IMG/VR virus record: IMGVR_UViG_3300044620_001082
Span: 1-24,696 of that record
Direction: 5' to 3' (one strand)
DNA length: 24,696 nt
From: a virus
Taxonomy: Duplodnaviria; Caudoviricetes
In this document: piece after piece, positions 565-13,860 of the stretch
How the letters are laid out: each line of letters begins with the position of its first letter
How positions within the stretch are numbered: the stretch's first letter is position 1
Notes under the pieces: model-generated
Told to the model about the DNA's origin: nothing
Databases searched by the model: none
What the model saw: only the letters and a program-made list of their open reading frames with translations
Position numbers and translations under genes: made by a program

Positions 565-965
565 TGCTCATCCAGTTCTTTCAATAATTTTTCAAGCTGT
601 TTGCGGGAGCCATCTGGGAGGTTTTTGGCAATTTGGCGCAATTTAGCAAACTGTTCTGGTGATGCTTTTATTGAGTCAAGCTCCGTATTCCTAAGTTCAG
701 AACCAGGACTAACCGCAAAAACATCTTTTATTCCACTCACCACATTAGCACTTTCAATAATCCCAAAAATGTCGGAATCAGATATTGGCCTAGATCTTGC
801 ACGATCTAAAATTTGTGGCTTAAGACGATCCATTGAGTCATTGAAGCCAGACTTATTAGGCTCGTATCCACGGCTCTTCGTGTTCTTTGGCGGCTTAACG
901 CTCACTAAGGAGTCTTTTGAACCAGACAGTTCCTCGTAAAGTTTTTTATGTGCTCTACTACTCAT
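561..965 (-). CDS. Hypothetical protein (134 aa)
   Basis: ATGA overlaps with both neighbours (translational coupling); no recognisable domain. Confidence 0.75.
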   Translation of the reverse strand: MSSRAHKKLYEELSGSKDSLVSVKPPKNTKSRGYEPNKSGFNDSMDRLKPQILDRARSRPISDSDIFGIIESANVVSGIKDVFAVSPGSELRNTELDSIKASPEQFAKLRQIAKNLPDGSRKQLEKLLKELDEQ

Positions 966-3900
966 TTAATACCTAGCACTTCCATTGCGTCTGGATGAAT
1001 CGTATTGACCCAACGACGTCCACGATACGCCCAGTCAAGCCACTTTACAATATTTTGCTTGACAACTTCTGGAATCATGTAATCCTTTATACCGTGGCCT
1101 GCCATAAGAAGAGCGTGTAGTTCTGCAAATATTTCCTGTGGTTCAATATCGCCTGGCTCAAGCATTAGGCCACCGTAATACGGTCGTTTTGATCCGTAGG
1201 AACTAAACAATTTAGCTAAATCTAACAAAGCTCTACGGTCAATTGGATCAGTAATTCCGTCCCATGTCCTTTGGCTTATTTCCCGAAGAGCTGCGCCTTG
1301 ATAGCCGTCAATTCCTACTTGGGTTGAAGGATCGTAGAACTTTGCAATATCAAGATCGTAGCTGTAAGCATCGTATGAATTTGATGGCGTTAGTTGCACA
1401 TTTGTAACGGGGTCGTCAGGGAAGAATTCTTTATATATGTCTGATTCACGGACGTCTTCCATGAAGATTGGATCAGTAAGTATTGCCATTATTGCGTCTG
1501 TAACTTGCTCATCGGCAATATTCTTTCCATTTGAACTCATATCTTTTCCGTAAAGTGGATGATCGGGTTCAAATGGAACAACAGCATAAATAACTTCTGA
1601 GTCAAGAATTAAATCACGTAGATCAATCATATTCCGACCGATGATCCGTTCAGCTTTTAGATTTGCTAGCGCATTGATATAATTTGCTCTTTGTTGCTGA
1701 AGCGCTTTAGCAATTGATACATCTTTTGTCTGGCCTAGAGAAACTTCAAGTTTTGCAATCTCTAGTGGCAGTTCTAGTATTGCTTCTTCAATCTTGGGCA
1801 GCACTGCTTCATAGCCATCGGCTTGCTTTTTTATCGCTGGTAGTATTTGTCTAACAACTGTTCCAGTAAATATTTGTTTGGCGTAAACCTTAGCTTTTGA
1901 TCTGACAGTATCAACAATTGCTTTGTCGCGCTCTAGTGCAGTTGTTCCAGACATTGACTCGTCATATGAAAGCGATTCGGCTAAAGCATGAGCCATTTCA
2001 TGGTGCGCAATGTTCATGATTGCACCCGTTTGCGCAAGAGAGTGAATTTGTCGGCGCTCAGCCTTACTCATTCCACTATTCCCAGAAGAGTAGGCCGTTT
2101 TCATAATCTGTGTACCGATATTGTCGCTTGTTGAGTCTTCGTTGGATATATAAACAGGCACAGTTTTTCCTGTTCGTGGATCTACGTACATACGCATTGA
2201 ATCACCGGAATGTTGACGGACGAGAGACCCATCTATCGCTAATTCCATAAGAAGCCACTTTGCTCCAGTTGAAGTTGAGCGATCAATGCCCCCACTTCTA
2301 TCAAACTTGGAGACATCGGATTCAACAACGCCAGTCAGCCCACCAAGAGAATCGCTTTGCTCGCGTATTGCGTAGCCCCAATCCTTTAATTCTGGTACTT
2401 GCATTGCTACTGAAATAACACCAGCAAAAGCTGATATTTCCTCATTTGTTAAATCTCTATCATTTTTACCAAAACCAGTTAATTTAATTTCTCTAAATAT
2501 TTGAGCTAATGCGCTCTTTGCATCGCTCACTTTTCGCAGGGGACCATATTTTGATTCAACACTTGATATTGTATTATCAACATATTTTCTGACATTATCA
2601 GCAGACATGCTTGGAGTCTGCTTGATTCTGTCATTATCTGCAATACTCCAATCTTTTATTTTGCTAGTCATTTCATCTATCATGTCGCGCAGCAATTGTT
2701 CAATATCGTTTAATGATGACCCTTCTGATTTTTTTGGTACAAGCCTTGATATGGGGCCCTTTTCAGCTTCTCTTAACTTCTCGCTTACCGATGCAACACC
2801 TACTGGGCGCTCAAACTGCGTTGAATCTTGCACCAAGCCGTCGCCATCACCATCTTCAGCTCTTGGATCAAACCTAGCCGTTAAAAGCCTGCCAATGCGA
2901 CGCATCTTTCGCGGCATCGCTTTTGCCTCTATCTCCACAAAATGTTCTTTTGTCTGTCCAACATTAAGTCCCATGAGTTTAAATACTCTGTATCTGCCGT
3001 CGCGTTTTACGTCGTTGATTAAGTTCAATTGACCGCTACTCATAAGCCTGTCAAGAATGATCATATTATGAAGATCTGCAGCCCATACGCCAAACTGTTT
3101 GCCGTCAGTTTTTTCAAACCCAGCCATGCTGTCTAGGATTTCGTCAATACCAATATCGTCGCCGGCGGACAAACCCATTCTCTGTCTAAAGATCTGCTTC
3201 AGTTGACCAAGGTATGTGTCAGCCGCATCAACTAAAATATCTTTTGCACTATCTTTGAGGCCGACAGTGTCTAGTTCTTGTCCTTTTTCTTTAGGGCTTT
3301 GCGGTCTGCTTGCGTAGAACTCTCCAGTGCGACCATCTTGTCGTACGTTATTTACAGTTGAAATATCTGATGCGTAGTTATTAATCTTTGGCGACCTGTA
3401 TCTACTGCCTTGATTCCTGAGTTGTGACTGATTTCTACGCTCAAGTGAATCAGATAAAAGCGCTCCAGTGCGTCTCCTGGCTCTATTTACACGTCCACCT
3501 TGCTGTGGTGAAAAACGCGGGCCACCAAGACTGCGTGGAACTCCGTCGGCATCAACTGGAACATTGAAGCGATCCGCAAATTCTTTTTGAATTATCTTCT
3601 CTAGTGTATTTTTATCTGCTGCACCGATGAGGCCAGGATCTGCGTCTGCCAGCAATGAGTAGATCATTTTATAAGCTGCATAAAACTCAGCATTTGCTTC
3701 TATACCAAAATTGCCACTTTTGTCAGTTGCATGCGAATATTCCGAACCGACGATGTTGGCAAGGTTTTTAAGATTATCCTGTATCCCTTGGCTTGGATTT
3801 ATGAGATCGTATAGCTCGCTATATATTGCCTCAACGATTTGCTCACGTTTAGTTTCATCAGTTTCTAGTGGAAGTGCATCCACTAAAGGCTTGATATTAG

Positions 3901-5296
3901 GATGTGAACTTATATCTAGAACTTTACGATTTACTAGTTCGCCAGTTTCTGTATCAAGAACTTGCATGTCCTTGGTTTCAGTTATTCCTGCTTGGTTTAG
4001 CTTTGCTCTAAAGTCAGCAAAATGACCAAATTCATGAGTTCCTACTTCATGTCCAAATGTCCGCATATCAGGGGGTGTTGCAAAAAGGTGCCTAGGATTA
4101 TCACCCGATACATATCGGTATGTATCTCGTAGTTGCTCTGGTGCCATCAGGAGCCCGAACATTCCATCGCCATCAATTGTTAATTGGGCTAAGTCGCCAC
4201 CAATCTCTCGTGCGTCAACTAGCTTCATTGAGCCGAGCATTTGAGACCACTCGCGATTATCGTAGGCTTCTAGTAGAAATGCCTCAATAAATCCCCACCT
4301 AAACTTTACATAGTCAGCGACTTCTTCGGCGTCAGAAAATTTTTCCAAAGGAATATTAAGAAAGTCATCTATTTCTTTTTCTGGCACATTAGGAAATGAC
4401 TCCCTCATTGCTTTTTTCATCTGACGAGCAGAGCGAAGGCTGCGACGACCAGATATTAAGCTGCGCCTTCCGAGGCCTTGGTAGGCAGCTTTGCGTCTAA
4501 GAGCAGCGCTTTCCTTGAGGAGCCGTTTACGCAGGCTCAATTCTTCGTCCCCAATGACCATATCGCCATCTGGCGTAGTGGCACGTAAACCTACTGCAAC
4601 AGCTCCGTTTATTGACTGTTTTGCAACCCGAGCCCCTGCACGCGCAGCTCCACCAGCAACAGTTCTAGCTGAGGGAATCATGCAATTTGACAACTGCAGG
4701 TCGGTGAACTGACCGCCGCCTGGAGTCTCCTCCGGACATCTCAAACGCCCTTGATCGTCAAACGGGATGTTCCTTGACCTAGCAATCCGCAGTAGCAGGT
4801 TGGGAAGTTTTAAATCATCACCAAGTGTCATGCCCAAAACGCTTTTGGCGTTAAAAGTCTGACCGTTAACAACGAACTTTTCTGGGTCTTTTATCAGGCC
4901 GTATCCAGTGTCGTTATTGTTTGGACCAAGACGACATACGACCATTTTGTGCCCAGGTGGAACTAGCGGTACTGGATCACCTTTTTTAAATGTTGATACA
5001 AAATGATCGTAGGGGTGTATTTTTTTTTCTGCTTTTGCTTTTGGCGTAGCATCGGTGATTGTCTTCTCTGGCTGCTTTTCGGTTTTGTGACGCACCCCAA
5101 AAGATGATGCTCTAGCTGCGAGTATGCGCGATTCAGCCCACCGACTAGTGTCTATTGCAGTACTTGATTCGCTCGCTTCAAAACTCATTTTTATATGCGA
5201 GCCAACAGACTTGGTGCTAAGGCGCCAAGCGTCGGTAGACGCCGTGTTGCCATCATTGCTATCTGCCAGCGAGCCCTCATGAATACCATCAGGCAC
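962..5296 (-). CDS. Large multidomain head-region protein (1444 aa) with two zincin-like metallopeptidase domains; polyvalent-protein-like
   Basis: GGAGG SD upstream of the GTG start. HEFGH (4022-4036) with distal EANAE (3686-3700); HEMAH (1988-2002) with distal EIFAE (1121-1135). RCPEETPGGGQFTD motif near 4700-4760 and the shared DGDGDG tag at 2804-2875. Confidence 0.8.
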   Translation of the reverse strand: MPDGIHEGSLADSNDGNTASTDAWRLSTKSVGSHIKMSFEASESSTAIDTSRWAESRILAARASSFGVRHKTEKQPEKTITDATPKAKAEKKIHPYDHFVSTFKKGDPVPLVPPGHKMVVCRLGPNNNDTGYGLIKDPEKFVVNGQTFNAKSVLGMTLGDDLKLPNLLLRIARSRNIPFDDQGRLRCPEETPGGGQFTDLQLSNCMIPSARTVAGGAARAGARVAKQSINGAVAVGLRATTPDGDMVIGDEELSLRKRLLKESAALRRKAAYQGLGRRSLISGRRSLRSARQMKKAMRESFPNVPEKEIDDFLNIPLEKFSDAEEVADYVKFRWGFIEAFLLEAYDNREWSQMLGSMKLVDAREIGGDLAQLTIDGDGMFGLLMAPEQLRDTYRYVSGDNPRHLFATPPDMRTFGHEVGTHEFGHFADFRAKLNQAGITETKDMQVLDTETGELVNRKVLDISSHPNIKPLVDALPLETDETKREQIVEAIYSELYDLINPSQGIQDNLKNLANIVGSEYSHATDKSGNFGIEANAEFYAAYKMIYSLLADADPGLIGAADKNTLEKIIQKEFADRFNVPVDADGVPRSLGGPRFSPQQGGRVNRARRRTGALLSDSLERRNQSQLRNQGSRYRSPKINNYASDISTVNNVRQDGRTGEFYASRPQSPKEKGQELDTVGLKDSAKDILVDAADTYLGQLKQIFRQRMGLSAGDDIGIDEILDSMAGFEKTDGKQFGVWAADLHNMIILDRLMSSGQLNLINDVKRDGRYRVFKLMGLNVGQTKEHFVEIEAKAMPRKMRRIGRLLTARFDPRAEDGDGDGLVQDSTQFERPVGVASVSEKLREAEKGPISRLVPKKSEGSSLNDIEQLLRDMIDEMTSKIKDWSIADNDRIKQTPSMSADNVRKYVDNTISSVESKYGPLRKVSDAKSALAQIFREIKLTGFGKNDRDLTNEEISAFAGVISVAMQVPELKDWGYAIREQSDSLGGLTGVVESDVSKFDRSGGIDRSTSTGAKWLLMELAIDGSLVRQHSGDSMRMYVDPRTGKTVPVYISNEDSTSDNIGTQIMKTAYSSGNSGMSKAERRQIHSLAQTGAIMNIAHHEMAHALAESLSYDESMSGTTALERDKAIVDTVRSKAKVYAKQIFTGTVVRQILPAIKKQADGYEAVLPKIEEAILELPLEIAKLEVSLGQTKDVSIAKALQQQRANYINALANLKAERIIGRNMIDLRDLILDSEVIYAVVPFEPDHPLYGKDMSSNGKNIADEQVTDAIMAILTDPIFMEDVRESDIYKEFFPDDPVTNVQLTPSNSYDAYSYDLDIAKFYDPSTQVGIDGYQGAALREISQRTWDGITDPIDRRALLDLAKLFSSYGSKRPYYGGLMLEPGDIEPQEIFAELHALLMAGHGIKDYMIPEVVKQNIVKWLDWAYRGRRWVNTIHPDAMEVLGIK

Positions 5297-5556: not shown

Positions 5557-6992
5557 TTCTCCGTTTCGTTAATACCATGCTCAGTAGCGAGCATTTCAAA
5601 TTCCATTAGCGAGGCAATAAAATTTGACTCTTCTGACTTTTCGCCATCGGAAAATCTTTTTTTCACATCTTCTGGAACCCAGTTGCTTGGAATCAATTCG
5701 TCAAGACCGAGCGACATGGCGCGCTTCATGATGTGAGCCTTTGCTGCTTCCTTGTCTTTTGCGCGGCCATACGCCTGAATTGCGTTGCGCAGGTCGGCTT
5801 CATCCTTAATTGGGTATGAACCGTCTGGCAAGGCGTTTCCTTGCTTGGCCATTGACATTCTTGACTCTTCGCTATAAGCACGCTTGAGCGCAATCTCTGC
5901 CGCCTCTGCTTCTATTTCTGAAGCTTCTTCCTGCGTGTACTCGTCGTACCCAAGAATTTCTCCAGACAATGAAACAAAGACATCGTATGATTTTCCGTCA
6001 ATGCCTTCTATCTCAACTGCATAGCTGTCATATCCTTCAAAGATGTCTGGCTCAATTGCAACAACATCACCCATAACGCTCTTTGTTGCGATGTCTGCTG
6101 CTTCCTCAAAGCCAATCATCTTGTTGCCTTCTAGGGCTGACTTGACTTGAAGGACGTCCTGATTCAAAAGCTGCCATCCAAGGCACTCACCAGTTTCGCC
6201 ATCAAAGAACGCCTCAACAGGACGACCATCTTTGCGCTCAATGTCAACCACAAATAGGTCAGCCTTGTCGGAGAATCCAGAATCAAGGACTTTGCCACTA
6301 AACATATCTTCAGCAATGCCTTCAATTTCAAGAAGCCCAGGCATTGAGCCCTCAGATACGCAGCCGCCCGGGCAGTTATCGCAAACCGATGACCCACCAG
6401 GATGAACTTTGCGTTCAAATGCGCACATGAAAGCTTCTTCGTCAAAGTCGGCTGACTTGTAGCCCATTGAGTTCATACGGCGCATACGCATCTTTTTGCG
6501 CATGGCAATCATGTCTACTTCTTCGTCTTCGTCTTCGTCTGACTCGGCATCCATGGATTCGTCATCCATTTCTTCCTCGTCTTCGTATTCTTCAGGCATG
6601 CGCTTTTTCTTTTTTGGCGCCATCATGCCGTACATTTTTTCTTCGTCTTCTTCTTCGTCTTCGTCTTCGTCTTCGGCCATTGCCTCAAGGATGGCTTTTA
6701 CATAAGCATCCTCATCCATATCTTCATCGTCAAGTTCTTCGCCCATGGCCATGTAGTCTTCAACCATTGTTTTTGGACTCTTTTTCTTGCGGACTGGAGC
6801 CATCGGCATTGCGTCCTCATCATCCTCGTCTGTCCCCCACATGTATCCGGCCTTGACGGACGATGCTATGGCTCCGCACTTTCCGCAGGCCTTTGCGCCA
6901 GGCTCGTAGCCGCATTCAGATAGATCCAAACCCTTTGCACACTGGATTATTTCACCGTCTGCATCTAGTTTTACCATAGCTTTTTCGTCCAT
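5553..6992 (-). CDS. Acidic multidomain head-region protein: Cys-rich modules, two PepSY-like repeats, C-terminal ALPDGSYPI domain (about 479 aa; start re-called to MDEKAM)
   Basis: AAGGAG SD and TAATG overlap support ATG at 6992 over TTG at 7028. CAKG..EC..CGKCGA; D/E-rich tract; C..CDNCPGGC; PepSY-like repeats at about 6178-6332 and 5949-6116; ALPDGSYPIKDEADLRNAIQAYGRAK...HIMKRA..LG...LIP..W, recalled from actinophage capsid-maturation proteins. Confidence 0.8.
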   Translation of the reverse strand: MDEKAMVKLDADGEIIQCAKGLDLSECGYEPGAKACGKCGAIASSVKAGYMWGTDEDDEDAMPMAPVRKKKSPKTMVEDYMAMGEELDDEDMDEDAYVKAILEAMAEDEDEDEEEDEEKMYGMMAPKKKKRMPEEYEDEEEMDDESMDAESDEDEDEEVDMIAMRKKMRMRRMNSMGYKSADFDEEAFMCAFERKVHPGGSSVCDNCPGGCVSEGSMPGLLEIEGIAEDMFSGKVLDSGFSDKADLFVVDIERKDGRPVEAFFDGETGECLGWQLLNQDVLQVKSALEGNKMIGFEEAADIATKSVMGDVVAIEPDIFEGYDSYAVEIEGIDGKSYDVFVSLSGEILGYDEYTQEEASEIEAEAAEIALKRAYSEESRMSMAKQGNALPDGSYPIKDEADLRNAIQAYGRAKDKEAAKAHIMKRAMSLGLDELIPSNWVPEDVKKRFSDGEKSEESNFIASLMEFEMLATEHGINETEK

Positions 6993-7186
6993 TACGACTC
7001 CTTGTATTGCATTGACTTTGTCAGGCAACCTTTGGGATTAGTGCATCCCCCACATGGTTGCATTCTTTTTTCGCCCGTAACCATGCAGTGATACTTATTT
7101 TGAAGATTGTTTGAACCTATTGGTTTAGAATAACCCATTTGAGCCCCACTCTGTGGGTACTTTGATGATTTCTTATTCTTTGCCAT
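6992..7186 (-). CDS. Small Cys4 (putative metal-binding) protein
   Basis: HCMVTGEKRMQPCGGCTNPKGC; stop overlaps the next ATG (TAATG). Start taken at MAKNKK (7186); the track uses TTG at 7195. Confidence 0.65.
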   Translation of the reverse strand: MAKNKKSSKYPQSGAQMGYSKPIGSNNLQNKYHCMVTGEKRMQPCGGCTNPKGCLTKSMQYKES

Positions 7187-7229
7187 GGGGATCAAATCCT
7201 AATCTGCATAACGACTAGACAATTTTATA

Positions 7230-8303
7230 CTAACCCGAATACCGTAGCTTTGGTGGCTTCTTAATCCGAGGTCTTGCTTTTTCTGCATTCCTCAATGCTT
7301 CAAGCATTTTGGCTTTGTTAATCTTGACATCTGCGATTCGCATAGAAAATTTTTCAGCAGCCTCAGACTCGGAATGATTACTGAGGTAAAGCAAGAAGTT
7401 TCTCGCACTAGGTGTCAACACTTGTGAATGATTGTTAATTAAATTAATTATTTCTGTATTAACGCCTTCTAGCTTCTGATCTGCTTCAGTGTCAACAATG
7501 CGATTATCTGGAATATCAAGATTAAATTCTTCGCTATATCGTTTAATTAATTTACCGACTAATGTTTGACTAATCTTCAAGGCTTCAGCAATTTTTTCGT
7601 GTGATATTCCATACTGAGAAAAAGTGTACATTAATTGACCTTTTTCCAAAGAAGATAGATCACTTAGCTCAATGTCAAAATCCTTTGCAGACCTATCCAC
7701 AGTTGTTTTGTCTACACCAAATGCCTTGGAAACTGCATCTTTACTAAATCCATATTTTCTAGCAACTGAAATAATTTTACGCTTTTGCTTAAAAACGCTT
7801 CTTGCAGAAATATTATTTTTTCTTAAAACGACAGAAACATAGTCGCTCGTTACCCCAACATCCTGCGCAATTTCATTTGGCCCAATGCCAAGTCTTGCCT
7901 GTCTTACGATTTCTTTAACACGTCCGCTGCGATCCACATTTGAAGTGCTTACACTTCCTAGTTTTTGTTTATTACGCGAGGCGCGCCTAGCGGTGGCAAT
8001 GCTTACTCCATATTTCTTAGCTAATGCTTTTGCTATCTCGGCTCGCTCTTTTGGGGTTTTGCCTCTGGCTATTTCTTCGGCCATTTCGTTACTTCTGCGC
8101 TCAAATTCAGCTACCGAAGATGCTTGGTTTACGGCTCTTCTTACGCCTGTGGTCACACCTCCAGAGACTGCACGACGAGCCGAAGGTCGTTCAAACTGTG
8201 TTGCGTCTTGAACTAGGCCGTCACTGTCGCCATCGAGGGCGTTTGGATCAAACCTATCAGTAAGGCGCCCTAAGCGACGTGGGTCGCCTGTGCGCCTCAG
8301 GCT
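7230..8303 (-). CDS. Multi-HTH DNA-binding protein; probably the -1 frameshift extension of the 8297-8656 gene (fusion about 475 aa)
   Basis: The frame is open 49+ codons upstream of the track's GTG (8156) and encodes SLRRTGDPRRLGRLTDRFDPNALDGDSDGLVQDATQFERP with no ATG/GTG/TTG. Five HTH-like units: ALAKKYGVSIATARR, EIAQDVGVTSDYVSVVL, AVSKAFGVDKTTVDR, KIAEALKISQTLVGKLI, EAAEKFSMRIADVK. Confidence 0.75.
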   Translation of the reverse strand, partial: SLRRTGDPRRLGRLTDRFDPNALDGDSDGLVQDATQFERPSARRAVSGGVTTGVRRAVNQASSVAEFERRSNEMAEEIARGKTPKERAEIAKALAKKYGVSIATARRASRNKQKLGSVSTSNVDRSGRVKEIVRQARLGIGPNEIAQDVGVTSDYVSVVLRKNNISARSVFKQKRKIISVARKYGFSKDAVSKAFGVDKTTVDRSAKDFDIELSDLSSLEKGQLMYTFSQYGISHEKIAEALKISQTLVGKLIKRYSEEFNLDIPDNRIVDTEADQKLEGVNTEIINLINNHSQVLTPSARNFLLYLSNHSESEAAEKFSMRIADVKINKAKMLEALRNAEKARPRIKKPPKLRYSG

Positions 8304-8309
8304 TTTAAA
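8261..8309 (-). other. Candidate -1 programmed ribosomal frameshift element (slippery heptamer plus 3' stem-loop)
   Basis: Minus strand GAT TTA AAA GCC TGA gives an in-frame X_XXY_YYZ heptamer T_TTA_AAA (8309-8303). It is followed by TGAGGCGC-ac-AGGCGAC-ccac-GTCGCTT-agg-GCGCCTTA, an 8-bp plus 7-bp stem (with G-U pairs) at 8299-8261. Confidence 0.65.
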
Positions 8310-8656
8310 TCAAGACCCCTAGCAACAGACTTGACTACAGCACTAATTGCATCTATTGCGTCCTCATCTAGGTAATCCATGTCCTCGATAACTAAAGACT
8401 TTGTTTCCTGTTGCAGAGAAACACCGTAGTAATCAAGTACTGGCTCAAGAAAAGACTTAGCCCCCATCAGGGCGTCGTCGTCGCCAGTAATTACAAGGTT
8501 TACCTTATTCTTGCCACCATCAGATGAATCTATGACTTCCGTCAAAAGCTCTAAGGCTTGTCTCAGTTTGCCCATATTTCTATTGCTTATAACGCGACCA
8601 CTCTTGACATCAATGTCGGTTCCACGCGGTGTTGAAAGAATAATTTTAGTTTCCAT
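8297..8656 (-). CDS. Head accessory protein (119 aa; start re-called to METKII) with KSGRVISNRN motif
   Basis: TAATG overlap with the protease stop. K[AS]GR.[IL]S..N...L..A...L..V resembles a motif recalled from the C-terminal part of many HK97-type prohead proteases. The C-terminal half resembles a segment of the 956-aa protease. Confidence 0.8.
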   Translation of the reverse strand: METKIILSTPRGTDIDVKSGRVISNRNMGKLRQALELLTEVIDSSDGGKNKVNLVITGDDDALMGAKSFLEPVLDYYGVSLQQETKSLVIEDMDYLDEDAIDAISAVVKSVARGLDLKA

Positions 8657-11526
8657 TATCGCCTGTTCCCATAATCTCTCCACAACTGTTGAAGTCTGTT
8701 TAAGTCAGCTGTTGATATTTGACCATTGTCAAAGCGCTCTAAAATGCTCTGCACTATCTGAAATCCGCGATTTTTCCTAGCCCAATCAATTGATTGATTC
8801 TGCTGTCTAGTGAGAACCCTTTTGCCTATTTTTCCACCTTGTAGCTGCTTAAGCATGTCGTCTAGTCCTTTACCGGATCTAGCCCCAAACTCCTTTGCAG
8901 CGTCGTAGTCAAGTTCATACTGCTCAACACCGCCATCACCCATGTTAAATATGACGCGGTTTGTTTGTGGGTCGTATGCAGCATCCGATATTCGCCTACT
9001 GCCTCGAGTGTCAAACCTCATCAAAGAACTAGGCATTGCTGGCTTGTCTGGATTATCTTGGCCTGATCCAGTCATTGACCCAGATACAGAGCGTTTATTT
9101 TTGCGACTACGAAGATCATCTAAGAAATCTTCTACGGCATTGGCTGGGCGAGGCTCTAAAACTGAGTTTGCGTGGATCCTCTCGGCTTCGCTTTCGCTAA
9201 CTTTATGTTCCTCTGTCCTGCCGTTAATCAACGTAAAACGAGCAGTACCGGAATCTTTGTCGTAAGTAGCATCTTTTAGGACTCTTGAACCACGCGTGTC
9301 AAACGATGGAGTCTTATTATCTTTGCTCCATCCAAACTTTTCTAGGTGTTTTCTAGCCTCTTCACTAAACCCTGAATATTGAGGCTTGGGGCGATTTGAA
9401 ATGGATCCAGATACGCGAGGCGTTTTATCTTTTGGGTTATCACCCTCAGTGCGACGCTTCATAGAGGCAACTCGCATTTCAATTTGCCTAACTTCAGCAC
9501 GTGTCATATTCATGCGTTGCGCTACGTCATCCAGCGACATGCCGTCTTCTGTGCGCATTTTCCATATTGCGTCACCAATTTTCTTAGCTTGACGCATTAC
9601 GCTTTCTGGTGTTGGCTTGCCCCTTGCCATTGAACCAGATGTCCGCGACCCAACTGGAACGGGTCTCCCTGGCCGTGGTCCAGGCGCTGGTGTTGGCGCA
9701 GGGCTAGGAACGGATGGTCTAACTGGTGGGCGAATTGGCTCTCTTGCTGGTTCAGGAACCTTTCGTGGAGGATTCATTGGAGGCATCATGCGAGGCGCCT
9801 TTGGGCGCTCAAATGTAGTTCCCTCTTGCACTAGGCCGTCATCGTCTCCATCAATTGCGTTTGCATCAAAACGACCTGTAGCCATTCTTCCCATGCGTCT
9901 CAGTTTGCGACCAACAGCCTTTTCTTCTAAGAAGTTAATTGCCGTCAATAGCGCCTCGTAGCCTTCTTCCGACATGGAGTCACTGTTCGGGACAACAAGA
10001 CCATCTTCAAGACTCTTTATATCAAATCCATGATATTTAGCTACAGTACTAGCCACCTCTAGCAGCTCATCAAGTTCGCTTTCGGATTGTATAAATAGAT
10101 GAATTCCAGGGTTTTCACTCTTAAACGCATCCCATGATGGCATGTCATCAATGACATATGATTTTCCACCACCACAACCACATCCGCAGTCACCTTTTGC
10201 TGGCTTCATTGCTACTCCGCCAAATACTGATCCAAAGTCATCATCGGCGTCGCCTACATATGCATTTCCTGGCATGTTGCTCGGTTTGCCGACTGGCATA
10301 TAGATTGTCTCTGGTTTGACTGTTTCGGCATTGCCAAACATGAATTCGCCATCTTCGTAGTGATAGCCAACTCGGATTGTCTGCATATCTCCGAAGTCGT
10401 TCATGAGGTCAAATATGACCATGTTTTTGTCTGCTGTACGGATTTTTACTTTGCCGCCAAACCGTTGAGAAACAGCCTTAGCAAGGTCATTAACACGCCC
10501 AAATGCTGGGTTCATTTCTTCATCACCACTGTAGATGCGGGATGCGTCGTAACTAGGGTGGCCTTTCTTCTTTACATTTTGGTATCTCTCAAGGAGGCGC
10601 CGGCCTTTAGCTGCAAGCTCGGCTGCATCGGACGCATTTTTAGGAACTGGTTCACCCCATGCAGCGGCAGCTAGTGCTAGACGAGTTGGCTTGCCATTTT
10701 TGCCAACAAGCGGACCAGATGGGTTTGTGTAAAATCGCGTCAAGAACGAACCCTTGCGACGCATTTTCTCTGGTGTGTCAGCTGGGCCTTTAACGCCAGG
10801 CTTCAGATTTGCGCCTTCCTTCTGCTTAAAGTACTTGCGTCCAGCTGGCGTTAGGCCACCCTTTGGATCCTTAAGATCTGCTGACTTGCCTTCAGGATCA
10901 GAAGGTACGCAATTCGGCACCATCTTGCCGTTCTTGCCCTTCTTCATTCCTACCTGCTGGTAACCAGGCCAACAAGGACTATCTGTCTTGCTTTCTGGAT
11001 CGTCGGATTTGATTGAAATTGTGCCAGTCAGCTGATTGGCGCCGTGGAGAACTGGTGAAACCTCATAGAGTTCAACCTCTTTGAGAAGATTTGCTTGCTG
11101 AACTGGGTCAAATACTGCATCAAGTGTCTTGTAACCAATTGACCACTCTTGCTCTTCACCAAAGAAGGCAACATTATTAAAGGCCTCGCGGCCACGCTCG
11201 GAACGCAAATTAAATTGCACTTTTGCAAAAAGTCCACCGATTCCAGCTCTTTTCATCTTTAGTGGTAGGCGTGGGTCATTAGGTGGCACTTCGTATATTT
11301 CAAGAACTTTGCCGATTGGCTCGTTCCAGTTATGACCCCAAACAACTCTTGGCTTACGTCTTTTTAGACTTGCTCCAAAACAGTTCGGCAGGCAAATATC
11401 GCCAACAGAATCTTTATTGCCGATGCCAGCAACGAAGCATTCAACGATGCCCTGCGCCTCATCAACTCCAATTTGAGCTGGAATTGACTTGTATTCTGTT
11501 GCAAATAGCGATGATTGTTCAGACAT
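8656..11526 (-). CDS. HK97-family prohead (capsid maturation) protease, peptidase S78/U35, with about 780-aa modular C-terminal extension
   Basis: GGAGG SD. The first ~170 aa has GN.DSVGD....F, WGHNWNEPIG (His), EWSIGY (Ser), L.EVELYEVSPVLHGAN. Lies directly downstream of the portal. The extension has CWPGY..VPNCVP, a DUF6321-like module, the DGDDDG tag, a sigma-R4-like HTH and two KTSC-like repeats. Confidence 0.92.
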   Translation of the reverse strand: MSEQSSLFATEYKSIPAQIGVDEAQGIVECFVAGIGNKDSVGDICLPNCFGASLKRRKPRVVWGHNWNEPIGKVLEIYEVPPNDPRLPLKMKRAGIGGLFAKVQFNLRSERGREAFNNVAFFGEEQEWSIGYKTLDAVFDPVQQANLLKEVELYEVSPVLHGANQLTGTISIKSDDPESKTDSPCWPGYQQVGMKKGKNGKMVPNCVPSDPEGKSADLKDPKGGLTPAGRKYFKQKEGANLKPGVKGPADTPEKMRRKGSFLTRFYTNPSGPLVGKNGKPTRLALAAAAWGEPVPKNASDAAELAAKGRRLLERYQNVKKKGHPSYDASRIYSGDEEMNPAFGRVNDLAKAVSQRFGGKVKIRTADKNMVIFDLMNDFGDMQTIRVGYHYEDGEFMFGNAETVKPETIYMPVGKPSNMPGNAYVGDADDDFGSVFGGVAMKPAKGDCGCGCGGGKSYVIDDMPSWDAFKSENPGIHLFIQSESELDELLEVASTVAKYHGFDIKSLEDGLVVPNSDSMSEEGYEALLTAINFLEEKAVGRKLRRMGRMATGRFDANAIDGDDDGLVQEGTTFERPKAPRMMPPMNPPRKVPEPAREPIRPPVRPSVPSPAPTPAPGPRPGRPVPVGSRTSGSMARGKPTPESVMRQAKKIGDAIWKMRTEDGMSLDDVAQRMNMTRAEVRQIEMRVASMKRRTEGDNPKDKTPRVSGSISNRPKPQYSGFSEEARKHLEKFGWSKDNKTPSFDTRGSRVLKDATYDKDSGTARFTLINGRTEEHKVSESEAERIHANSVLEPRPANAVEDFLDDLRSRKNKRSVSGSMTGSGQDNPDKPAMPSSLMRFDTRGSRRISDAAYDPQTNRVIFNMGDGGVEQYELDYDAAKEFGARSGKGLDDMLKQLQGGKIGKRVLTRQQNQSIDWARKNRGFQIVQSILERFDNGQISTADLNRLQQLWRDYGNRR

Positions 11527-11584: not shown

Positions 11585-11623
11585 TGATGAGTTTTATTAA
11601 AGTCTACTGATGACTTTTATTAA
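11585..11623. repeat. 16-bp imperfect direct repeat in the portal-protease intergenic region
   Basis: TGATGAGTTTTATTAA (11585-11600) and TGATGACTTTTATTAA (11608-11623): 15/16 identical, 23-bp period. Confidence 0.75.
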
Positions 11624-13860
11624 TCTCTGTCAAAACGCAACTTACATCTGCAGTTGATGGTCAAATGTGGTGGTGCAGTGGGATCTCCTGGGAAGCGGAG
11701 CGTATTGTTCCCGACCTCAAATTCTTCAAGCAAATCAATTTTCTTGCCCTGAAGTATTAGATGTTCTGGTCGTACCCGCGTATCTTTGCGTGTAACCCAA
11801 GTCTTCGTAATCCCACCAACTTGCTTTCCAGCAAAGTATGTTCCTGCGTTAAAAGCTGTTTGAGACTCGTGTTCGGCAATGGTTCTACGACGTTTCATAA
11901 GAAGATTAATAAATATTGCCGCAAGAGCTGCTTTGAGCATGCCTGAGCGATCCTCATCTTCTGACAGCGCCAGCGCTATAAGGATTGCAGCTGCGATTTC
12001 TTCTTTTGTCGTCGCATTGATCTTCTGCATACGCTTTATCTGTTCATCAAGATATTCATTAACTTCTTCATCATCGAGCTCAGCAGGCATGTTGGCCTTT
12101 TGCGAAGCCAAAGATGCTGCATCAGAAATTATTCCTTGAATGACAGGGCGCATGTCGTCTGATAGTTGCTTGTCCCATACTTCTGAGTCAAAGATTGCAT
12201 CTATGTCCAGAGATCCAGACTGCAGACCTTTCTTGGCCTTTGTTCCACTTGATTTCTCCACAACAACGCGCTGTTGACGCTCAATAAATCGCTCAAGACC
12301 ACGATCAAGAATTTCTGCCCACCTGTTTGAGCTTTCGTCAGCCTTAACTTCCCACTCGTCGTCCATTTTATTTTCAGACTTAAACTGCATACCACCGTCG
12401 TATGCCGACAACAGTCCCTCTGGGGCTGGAGGCATCGCTGTGTCAATTTGTGGCGCACCAGCTTCCGCTGCAAGAGCTGCGGTCATACCCTCTTGTGGCA
12501 TAGGTGGCACACCTGCTTGGCCAGCTAATGGCTGAGGAGCTGTAACCATCTGCTCAGTTCCTGGAACCATTCCTGGTATTGCGCCAGGAGCTCCCATCAT
12601 GTCAATTTGCTGTTGCTGCGTTGAATCAAATGGCTTATTCGTATAACCAATTGGTGTCAGGTTTGGATTGGCAAGCATTGCATCCATTAAGTCGGAATCA
12701 ACTGCTTTCTTACCAGTTCCTTTGCGATATTCGTTACCACTTATGAGTCCATTTTGGAACTCGTCAAGCAAGTAACGCTCACGTTCCTGCTTGTAAAGAA
12801 TTAGTACAGGAACATCTGATGTATCAAAGTCAATGTAGTATTGCTCATCAAGCTCGTCTAGTCCGCGTGCTAGAGAGTCAAGATGTGGAAGCATTGTTTC
12901 GTTCCAAAAAACGCGCAATTCTTCATTTGCGTTATTGAATGTACGGCCAGCTGCATTGCCTATAACCGACTCGGGGACACCGAATGCCGCAAGGATTTCT
13001 TCTTTTGTGATTTGGCGCATCTGTATGTAGTTAGCGTCTCGCGGCGATGACCCAGTGTCCACGAAGTCAACACCCTCGTCGGAGGAAAGTACAGTTACAG
13101 CTCCAGCCCTATTGAGGTTGCCACGGAATCGGTTTCTAATTTCGTCTTTATCGTCATCATCAACTTCTCCACGCAAGACTATTAATCCACCTGGGCGACC
13201 ATCATTAAGCAAAAAGTTTCTGTTATACACCTTCGCTAAGTTTTCAATCTCAATTGCTATGCCAGCAGCTTCCATTGGCGTAAGTGACAGATATGGATCT
13301 AGCGGGTGTGGGCGCCTAACCCAAATTACGTCCTGAGGTTTCAGTATGACTTTTGTGCCGTTGCGCATGTCAACTTCAAAGCCAGATACAAATGTCCTAG
13401 GATCTGGTATTGGTGCCGTGTGTTGTGGTGGTAACAACTGAAGAGCAATTACTTTTCCATTACGTCCGCGCACCTTTTCAATGAAAGCGCCACGGCTTGA
13501 CATTAAAAGTTGTGATGAAAGCCTGTATCTGAATATGAACGAGTTTTCGCCCATGTTCGCTTTCGTGTTAAGTATTTTGAGTAGGTCGTTATCGCTACTG
13601 CGCAAAATCTGACCATCTGGCGAATTGTTCTTCCGCAACATGGCTGGAAGTCGTGCCTGGTTGCCGGCGATAGCGTCAATGCAGCGATTAACCCATGTTA
13701 CTTTTTGAAAGCCTTCGCGGTATGCGCGCTCAATGTCCCACGAGTCCTTGTATGGCTTTCCAGCAAGACCAGGATTAAAGGCAATTGGTGCGCCAGGGGT
13801 CAGAATTGACTTGGCCTCTGGTGAATACAAAGACTTATTATTAGACGAGTTCCAAGGCAT
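11620..13860 (-). CDS. HK97-family portal protein fused to a C-terminal Mu gpF / SPP1 gp7-like minor head domain
   Basis: Portal motifs WVNRCIDAIA...ARLP, NFLLNDGRPGGLI, DANYIQMRQITKEEILAAFGVPESVIG, then a P/Q/A/G/M-rich linker, then the MuF signature KTWVTRKDTRVRPEH...G.....F......LRFPGDP......INCRC. Confidence 0.93.
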   Translation of the reverse strand: MPWNSSNNKSLYSPEAKSILTPGAPIAFNPGLAGKPYKDSWDIERAYREGFQKVTWVNRCIDAIAGNQARLPAMLRKNNSPDGQILRSSDNDLLKILNTKANMGENSFIFRYRLSSQLLMSSRGAFIEKVRGRNGKVIALQLLPPQHTAPIPDPRTFVSGFEVDMRNGTKVILKPQDVIWVRRPHPLDPYLSLTPMEAAGIAIEIENLAKVYNRNFLLNDGRPGGLIVLRGEVDDDDKDEIRNRFRGNLNRAGAVTVLSSDEGVDFVDTGSSPRDANYIQMRQITKEEILAAFGVPESVIGNAAGRTFNNANEELRVFWNETMLPHLDSLARGLDELDEQYYIDFDTSDVPVLILYKQERERYLLDEFQNGLISGNEYRKGTGKKAVDSDLMDAMLANPNLTPIGYTNKPFDSTQQQQIDMMGAPGAIPGMVPGTEQMVTAPQPLAGQAGVPPMPQEGMTAALAAEAGAPQIDTAMPPAPEGLLSAYDGGMQFKSENKMDDEWEVKADESSNRWAEILDRGLERFIERQQRVVVEKSSGTKAKKGLQSGSLDIDAIFDSEVWDKQLSDDMRPVIQGIISDAASLASQKANMPAELDDEEVNEYLDEQIKRMQKINATTKEEIAAAILIALALSEDEDRSGMLKAALAAIFINLLMKRRRTIAEHESQTAFNAGTYFAGKQVGGITKTWVTRKDTRVRPEHLILQGKKIDLLEEFEVGNNTLRFPGDPTAPPHLTINCRCKLRFDRD

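Follow-up and report, generated by a model that had tools for sequence, protein, structure and literature searches.

A probable programmed -1 ribosomal frameshift between a prohead-protease tail domain and exchangeable cargo in a family of aquatic phages

We analyzed a 24,696-nucleotide stretch of a 24.7 kb virus record (the window) and found, at the 3' end of a 119-aa reading frame in its head module, what is most probably a programmed -1 ribosomal frameshift. Under this reading, to which we give a probability of roughly 0.87, hairpin-stimulated tandem slippage would produce a protein domain alone and the same domain extended by a tag and cargo, in a fixed ratio. As far as sequence can tell, every testable feature of a canonical -1 frameshift is present: a slippery heptamer, a predicted 3' structure, a start-less frame under selection, and a frame break that is genomic.

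The head module lies on the minus strand of the window, and DNA of the window was found in lake and freshwater metagenomes, with no RNA data set among the matching sequencing runs listed. Because WhiB occurs in three of five related contigs, including L002, a 94% identical relative, the host of the phage is probably actinobacterial. The features of the window are as follows.

11620-13860, minus strand: portal protein fused to a MuF head-morphogenesis domain
8656-11526, minus strand: prohead protease of 956 aa (S78 and DUF6321), just upstream of the 119-aa ORF
8297-8656, minus strand: 119-aa ORF, the 0 frame of the proposed shift; elsewhere its domain belongs to the C-terminal region of prohead proteases
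8303-8309, minus strand: slippery heptamer U_UUA_AAA, in phase, one codon ahead of the 0-frame stop
8297-8299, minus strand: 0-frame stop within the spacer, TGA (TAA in L010)
8261-8299, minus strand: predicted stimulatory hairpin, 39 nt, CCAC loop, G/C-rich stem at 8297-8263
8184-8252, minus strand: tag F-D-P-N-A-x-D-G-D-x-D-G-L-V-Q...F-E-R-P, in the -1 frame after Lys-Ser-Leu and an Arg/Gly-rich linker
8154-8174, minus strand: module linker R-x-x-S-G-[SG]-[MIV], with GTG 8156 as its last residue
7230-8153, minus strand: HTH-type cargo track (Pfam HTH_23, E 1.9e-11); other cargo in relatives
6992-7195: small Cys-rich gene, with a homologue in L003-L007
5553-7028, minus strand: acidic, Cys-rich ORF of 491 aa with a weak PepSY match
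962-5296, minus strand: ORF of 1444 aa with a third copy of the tag, in frame, near 2854

The protease stop overlaps the start of the 119-aa ORF in the window (TAATG, 8654-8658, minus strand; ATGA in L010 and L011), which suggests that the 119-aa gene is probably translationally coupled to the protease. We take its product to be a head protein from its homology to protease tails and its position among the genes. As the initial annotation had proposed, the site lies outside the tail-chaperone and capsid genes, adjoined by the portal-MuF and prohead-protease genes and with no match to a chaperone family. Among the other ORFs, the C-terminal module of the 491-aa ORF weakly resembles the head maturation protease family phrog_80 (E 0.009), and the 1444-aa ORF, which has no Pfam match, carries besides its tag a P-G-G-G-Q-F motif and two HExxH motifs that are presumably zincin-like. 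An Rfam search of the window gave no match, and a promoter scan returned the chance level (3 found versus 4.3 expected). Terminator-like sites numbered 5 against 1.4 expected, one of them inside the 119-aa ORF on the minus strand; a weak terminator-like hairpin with a U-run is located there at 8473-8460.

A slippery heptamer, an open -1 frame, and a predicted hairpin

On the minus strand, the 119-aa ORF ends GAT(8311-8309) TTA AAA GCC TGA(8299-8297), just as the initial annotation had read it, with the heptamer at 8309-8303 in phase. In the -1 frame, a TGA lies directly before TTT AAA AGC, and 357 codons run from 8303 to a stop at 7230. The earlier claim that this frame opens at the heptamer holds in the window; the upstream TGA is not conserved, the frame of L011 being open for 11 codons further. 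A -1 slip after Lys118 would yield 118 + 357 = 475 aa. The -1 frame of the window contains no ATG, GTG, or TTG ahead of the tag, and the first such codon is the GTG at 8156, directly after GGAGGT. This GGAGGT had been judged unlikely to act as a Shine-Dalgarno (SD) sequence, and our calculation agrees, with a best value for the GTG of -1.9 kcal/mol at a spacing of 4-14 nt.

The hairpin is 39 nt long with a CCAC loop (8299-8261), as previously described, and only its start is refined here: the three lowest pairs begin 3 nt past the heptamer, and the G/C-rich stem begins 5-6 nt past it. The usual spacing between heptamer and structure is given as 5-9 nt (PMC5009743). Folding of 64 nt of RNA, a check that the initial annotation had proposed, gave -25.8 kcal/mol and a z-score of -3.26, with 1 of 200 shuffles as good; the hairpin is also better than all 500 of 500 synonymous recodings. 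We surveyed phased X_XXY_YYZ heptamers across 8076 codons in the 28 window ORFs judged real. Of the 17 found, the one at 8309-8303 has the strongest downstream fold (-22.5 versus -10.5 kcal/mol for the next) and the sole long -1 frame (359 codons versus ≤30). The sequence AGGGG lies 6 nt upstream of the heptamer in the window and L001, with AGCGG or GGCGG in L002, L009, and L011. Readthrough of the stop was rejected as a route to extension, since another 0-frame stop follows after 8 codons.

Conservation of the frame break in the window clade

At the level of assembled contigs rather than raw reads, and with a possible source run excluded, contigs from six of eight runs, representing six studies, bridge the junction with zero indels; runs X9 and X18 do not cover it. 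This comparison answers, for contigs, the concern about read errors raised in the initial annotation. Variants within the hairpin occur in runs X10 and X12, either in the loop (8281, 8282) or as an A-U to G-U change that preserves pairing (8289).

Six related loci reach the end of the gene, at amino acid identities of 99% (L001), 94% (L002, L008), 83% (L009), and 56% (L010, L011), and GATTTAAAAGCCTRA is kept in all six (L001, L002, L008-L011). The initial annotation had asked whether relatives carry one more A in the run; all six share the frame break, so that heptamer and frame change are kept at 56-99% identity, as is the predicted stem in the five loci that are long enough. The tag likewise lies in the -1 frame, with no ATG, GTG, or TTG before it, in five of the five loci extending far enough (L010 ends 21 nt on). 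Between heptamer and GTG, the -1 frame shows a pS of 0.33 and a pN of 0.06 against L002, and 0.44 and 0.11 against L009, and the other two frames fit this stretch worse. Judged by these substitutions, the start-less stretch is under purifying selection in the -1 frame, and our start-codon scan and this selection together bear out the earlier suggestion of a coding region upstream of any standard start. Across five sequences of the window clade, 88% of stem positions pair and only 3 pairs are compensated, a modest covariation among few independent sequences; L011 departs from the common stem fold and has a dinucleotide z-score of -0.96.

Domain, tag, and cargo across the family, with two predicted polarities

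The 119-aa protein matches neither a Pfam nor a PHROG family, and NCBIfam, the PDB, and the ESM Atlas yielded nothing convincing. A PDB sequence search for likeness to known scaffold or capsid-binding proteins reached a best E of only 0.83, the ESM Atlas held no usable match for domain or tag, and there was no match to the protein among cultured phages. A search by shared words for longer fused homologues also found none, which is weak evidence. The two AlphaFold models are both of low confidence (55.5 and 59.3); that of the 119-aa protein (pLDDT 59) places a β-α-β-β-α core at approximately residues 51-112.

A profile search with the domain was more productive, recovering 81 representatives. 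Many of these are long proteins that carry the domain internally or terminally. In L003-L007, the domain comes last in a long ORF that we read as the prohead protease because of its position and its match to the tail of the window's protease. No tag or cargo lies behind the domain in these loci, and a homologue of the small Cys-rich gene (window 6992-7195) follows directly; tag plus cargo therefore behaves as an optional cassette. In many other relatives, the domain leads through K-[AGS]-L and an Arg/Gly linker to the tag, all in frame. Inside the window's protease, too, there is a diverged copy of the domain, from which reading continues in frame to the protease's own tag (hhalign of the 119-aa family against this copy: probability 43%, E 2.5e-4). 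These comparisons show homology between the 119-aa protein and the C-terminal domain of the prohead proteases in this family. Since the domain sits at or in protease tails, with a diverged copy in the window's protease, the stand-alone gene appears to be a protease tail that was duplicated. Eight of nine protein homologues end [DN]-L-K-[AV], with P0008 as the exception. Stand-alone homologues at ≈27-30% identity (P0020/P0097/P0098 and P0044) end N-L-K-A or Y-L-K, endings that are compatible with a U_UUA_AAA site.

We estimate that ≈470 IMG/VR stretches hold the tag pattern, and in cultured phages the only matches to the tag are at E 3-10. The window tag is a 72% nucleotide repeat of the protease copy. 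Its DxDxDG element, which may be Ca-binding-like, also opens or closes many small unrelated ORFs (e.g., in L017, L033, L037, L085, and L087), sometimes twice in tandem, and the tag therefore behaves as a portable motif. The K-[AS] site noticed earlier at the junction is borne out in the form K-[AGS]-L, which precedes 17 of 23 tags as compared with 265 of 2343 background windows.

Linkers of the form R-x-(x)-[SA]-G-[SG]-[MIV] separate the cargo modules of the window (9645, 9417, 9093, and 8174, minus strand) and of L002, L009, and L011, and G-[ML]-R-S repeats take their place in the cargo of L078. In 15 copies from the window, L002, L009, and L011, the codon for the last linker residue is ATG (9), GTT (3), ATT (2), or GTG (1). 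These repeated linkers are candidate polyprotein cut sites. The window cargo consists of several helix-turn-helix-like repeats, and a classical polyvalent enzyme domain sought there was not found. In relatives, the cargo is swapped for another HTH array (L011), for a sequence with no Pfam match above the cut-off (L009), or for yet another type (L078). From gene content, these are variable domains joined to head genes of a portal-terminase phage, and by analogy the cargo may be packaged in the virion and delivered.

An unbiased scan with the tag alone, covering 17 of 64 parts of IMG/VR, returned 125 loci in 117 distinct contexts. Most tag-bearing ORFs of the family have a start of their own. 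One complete context, L078, lacks a start codon, and two more start-less contexts are cut by locus ends. In L078, a 566-aa protease ends GAA AAA AAA GTC TGA, with an A8 run, and the -1 frame encodes K-S-L-R, the tag, and a frame of 960 codons; a 7-bp stem lies 6 nt downstream, GGGGAG lies 5 nt upstream of the run, and five contigs share this entry site without a difference. A phased G_GGA_AAR or A_AAA_AAA is present at 20 of the 23 domain-tag junctions of the scan and absent from three. L078 is the only entry-type site among the 20. The other 19 are exit-type: domain and tag are in frame, with the heptamer 37-40 nt before the tag. A -1 slip at exit-type sites would reach a stop 2-18 codons later; for these 19 the distance is 4-13 codons, and the stop falls before or at the tag. 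Heptamers of the G_GGA_AAR type are typical of the lambda tail-chaperone class.

Across the family, the stem is positioned 5-8 nt downstream of the heptamer. It is better than synonymous recoding (p ≤ 0.05) at 16 of 19 exit sites and 5 of 6 entry sites, and no better at that level at three exit sites and L078. In an alignment of the 11 exit sites that share one register (the eight with other loop lengths being left out), 97% of cells pair, five of seven pairs change on both sides, and 0 of 500 shuffles match this. A later scan, biased because AAAAG was preselected, gave 62 loci in 43 distinct contexts, with 34 exit sites, 3 entry sites, and 6 contexts without a site; L173 was reassigned in this count by hand from exit to entry because its A8 run fits both phases. 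The same scan added C_CCA_AAA in L212. The first triplet is thus GGG, AAA, CCC, or TTT, and the following AAA is kept.

A tree built from 43 domain sequences groups the entry site of L078 with the A-run clade of exit type (100/100) and sets the window clade apart (100/100), an arrangement suggesting that polarity flipped twice independently; the tree carries a long-branch warning, and a second tree agrees in topology with less support. At the window lineage's own protease junction (six contexts), there is no phased heptamer, as would be expected if the switch has moved to the duplicate gene. Elsewhere, phased U_UUU_UUU (Phe-Phe) occurs near the domain end, 79-100 nt before the tag, in L064, L086, and L109, followed in L086 and L109 by a stem 10-20 nt later, and is possibly an alternative shift site. 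Pattern matches in L013 and L014 and 11 of 18 from another pattern scan were set aside as chance, having their own start or the wrong frame. L165 was a false match, and scans of genome contigs gave no match.

Proposed mechanism, alternatives, and implications

We propose that a fraction of ribosomes shift -1 at U_UUA_AAA at the end of the 119-aa gene, stimulated by the predicted hairpin 5-6 nt downstream. In a tandem slip, tRNA-Leu would move from UUA to UUU and tRNA-Lys from AAA to AAA, giving the junction ...D-L-K-S-L-R. The products would be the 119-aa protein and, presumably as the minority form, a 475-aa fusion with tag and HTH cargo. The domain may act in head assembly in the manner of a scaffold, carrying cargo into the prohead. 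The protease would cut after the Lys of K-[AGS]-L, a cleavage that we liken to HK97-type processing, and the shift would fix how many domain copies bear cargo. In most relatives, in which the domain lies within the protease and reads in frame into tag and cargo, X_XXA_AAA and the stem would instead shift ribosomes out, giving these two products again but with the frames exchanged.

Several other explanations of the junction were weighed. The break falls at a T/A run, as would an assembly or homopolymer error in a continuous gene, but the same break in six independent runs and six related loci, at the contig level, leaves this reading next to no credibility. Transcriptional slippage, or another form of recoding such as a +2 shift or a hop, could also make the fusion at the run. 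The L078 lineage has an A8 run, and in Thermus dnaX transcriptional slippage is described as giving the same two-product outcome (PMC5009743). The window's run, however, is only T3A4, and G_GGA_AAA and C_CCA_AAA are not long homopolymers; moreover, the X_XXY_YYZ phase and the stem spacing are kept across the variants, as ribosome slippage needs. We therefore consider a transcriptional or other recoding origin improbable.

We find it similarly hard to favor two separate genes, in which an old indel was fixed, the cargo is translated from its own start (GTG 8156, ATG in relatives, or CTG 8300), and the tag region is a relic. A start codon does occur at the same place after the tag in the window (GTG) and in L002 and L009 (ATG), so that tag-less cargo from an internal start may arise as a side product; starts of their own are the rule in tag-bearing ORFs of the family, and a CTG lies in the -1 frame at 8300-8298. 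Yet purifying selection acts in the -1 frame on the 51 codons that precede the GTG, which itself has no usable SD and stands where the linker has its last residue, a position occupied by ATT or GTT in 5 of the 15 linker copies; L011 lacks such a start, and the CTG is CTA in L010. A relic, furthermore, would not retain heptamer and stem at 56% identity. The chance that heptamer and stem are by-products of Gly/Lys/Arg-rich linker peptides written in G/C-rich codons appears slimmer still. The linker is indeed Gly/Arg-rich, dinucleotide-shuffle z-scores are weak for several exit-type stems, and related sequences are not independent. Against this, the amino acid ahead of G-K can be L, P, G, or A, yet the third position of its codon remains G, and control x-G-K sites in the same ORFs are slippery in only 4 of 94 cases (chance per site from codon usage, 0.03-0.17). 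The stems both beat synonymous recoding at most exit sites and covary, and a by-product could not account for translation of the start-less tag in the window clade. A programmed -1 frameshift remains our preferred reading.

Several known systems resemble the one proposed here. In lambda gpG/gpGT, a short assembly gene undergoes a -1 shift close to its 3' end, at a ratio of 30:1 (PMC5009743). The window's site shares its entry polarity and, as predicted, its pairing of a short protein with a C-terminally extended form; unlike G/GT, it lies in a head module behind portal and protease, lacks a chaperone match, and has variable cargo and the reverse polarity in relatives. In E. coli dnaX, a heptamer and simple stem-loop give short and long products (tau/gamma), and the same review describes a reversed arrangement predicted in Chlorobium and the swapping of polarities by a single-base change (PMC5009743). 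The family resembles dnaX in its heptamer and stem-loop, in the exit polarity of relatives, and in the existence of both polarities. It differs in that the protein is unrelated, the A site carries AAA, not AAG, at every heptamer observed except one, and no upstream SD-like stimulator appears to be conserved in the window clade. The carboxysome shell-assembly protein csoS2 is made in long and short forms by a -1 exit to a near stop (PMC5009743), as we predict for the exit-type relatives; it belongs, however, to a bacterial microcompartment, with no homology expected, and its extension is not variable cargo.

Frameshift extensions of capsid or tail proteins are described for T7 and T3 gp10, Lactobacillus phage A2, and Listeria phages A118, A500, and PSA (PMC5009743). 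In these, as predicted here, a phage head gene is extended by frameshifting, but there the 0 frame encodes the major capsid or tail protein, to which a mostly Ig-like extension is added, in contrast to our protease-tail domain with its tag and its HTH-type or different cargo. In polyvalent and MuF- or portal-fused effectors, variable domains sit on head components near portal and terminase genes, and packaging and delivery of these proteins are assumed (Iyer et al. 2017, PMC5512222). The window shares the tie between variable domains and head genes, and unlike polyvalent proteins lacks a classical polyvalent enzyme domain in its cargo. The word "frameshift" occurs 0 times in the main text of that study (PMC5512222), and our literature search, made largely in openly available papers, found no frameshift reported at a prohead-protease/cargo junction. 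From its predicted parts, the window system works like lambda G/GT, dnaX, and csoS2 yet belongs to none of these gene families.

The junction is very probably a programmed -1 frameshift, a known mechanism at a location outside the textbook set, with two polarities and exchangeable cargo as added interest. In SEA-PHAGES, 2397 of 2476 annotated frameshifts are tail chaperones (PMC10885494), and a conserved site at a head-protease/cargo junction would add a further class of phage frameshift. For annotation, it would mean that entry-type cargo genes are called from the wrong internal start and that exit-type genes conceal a short form of the protease. The natural series of heptamers and stems in both polarities suits tests of how efficiency and polarity evolve. 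If domain and tag load cargo into heads, they would point to a portable packaging signal. The fullest picture, for which we see about even odds, is of a large, uncultured and probably actinobacterial aquatic phage family in which a Gag/Gag-Pol-like switch ending a protease-derived head-assembly domain doses tagged, swappable head cargo. This switch would exist in four heptamer variants, would have undergone at least two polarity flips, and would have moved to a duplicated domain gene, leaving the protease's cargo constitutive and that of the duplicate expressed by frameshifting.
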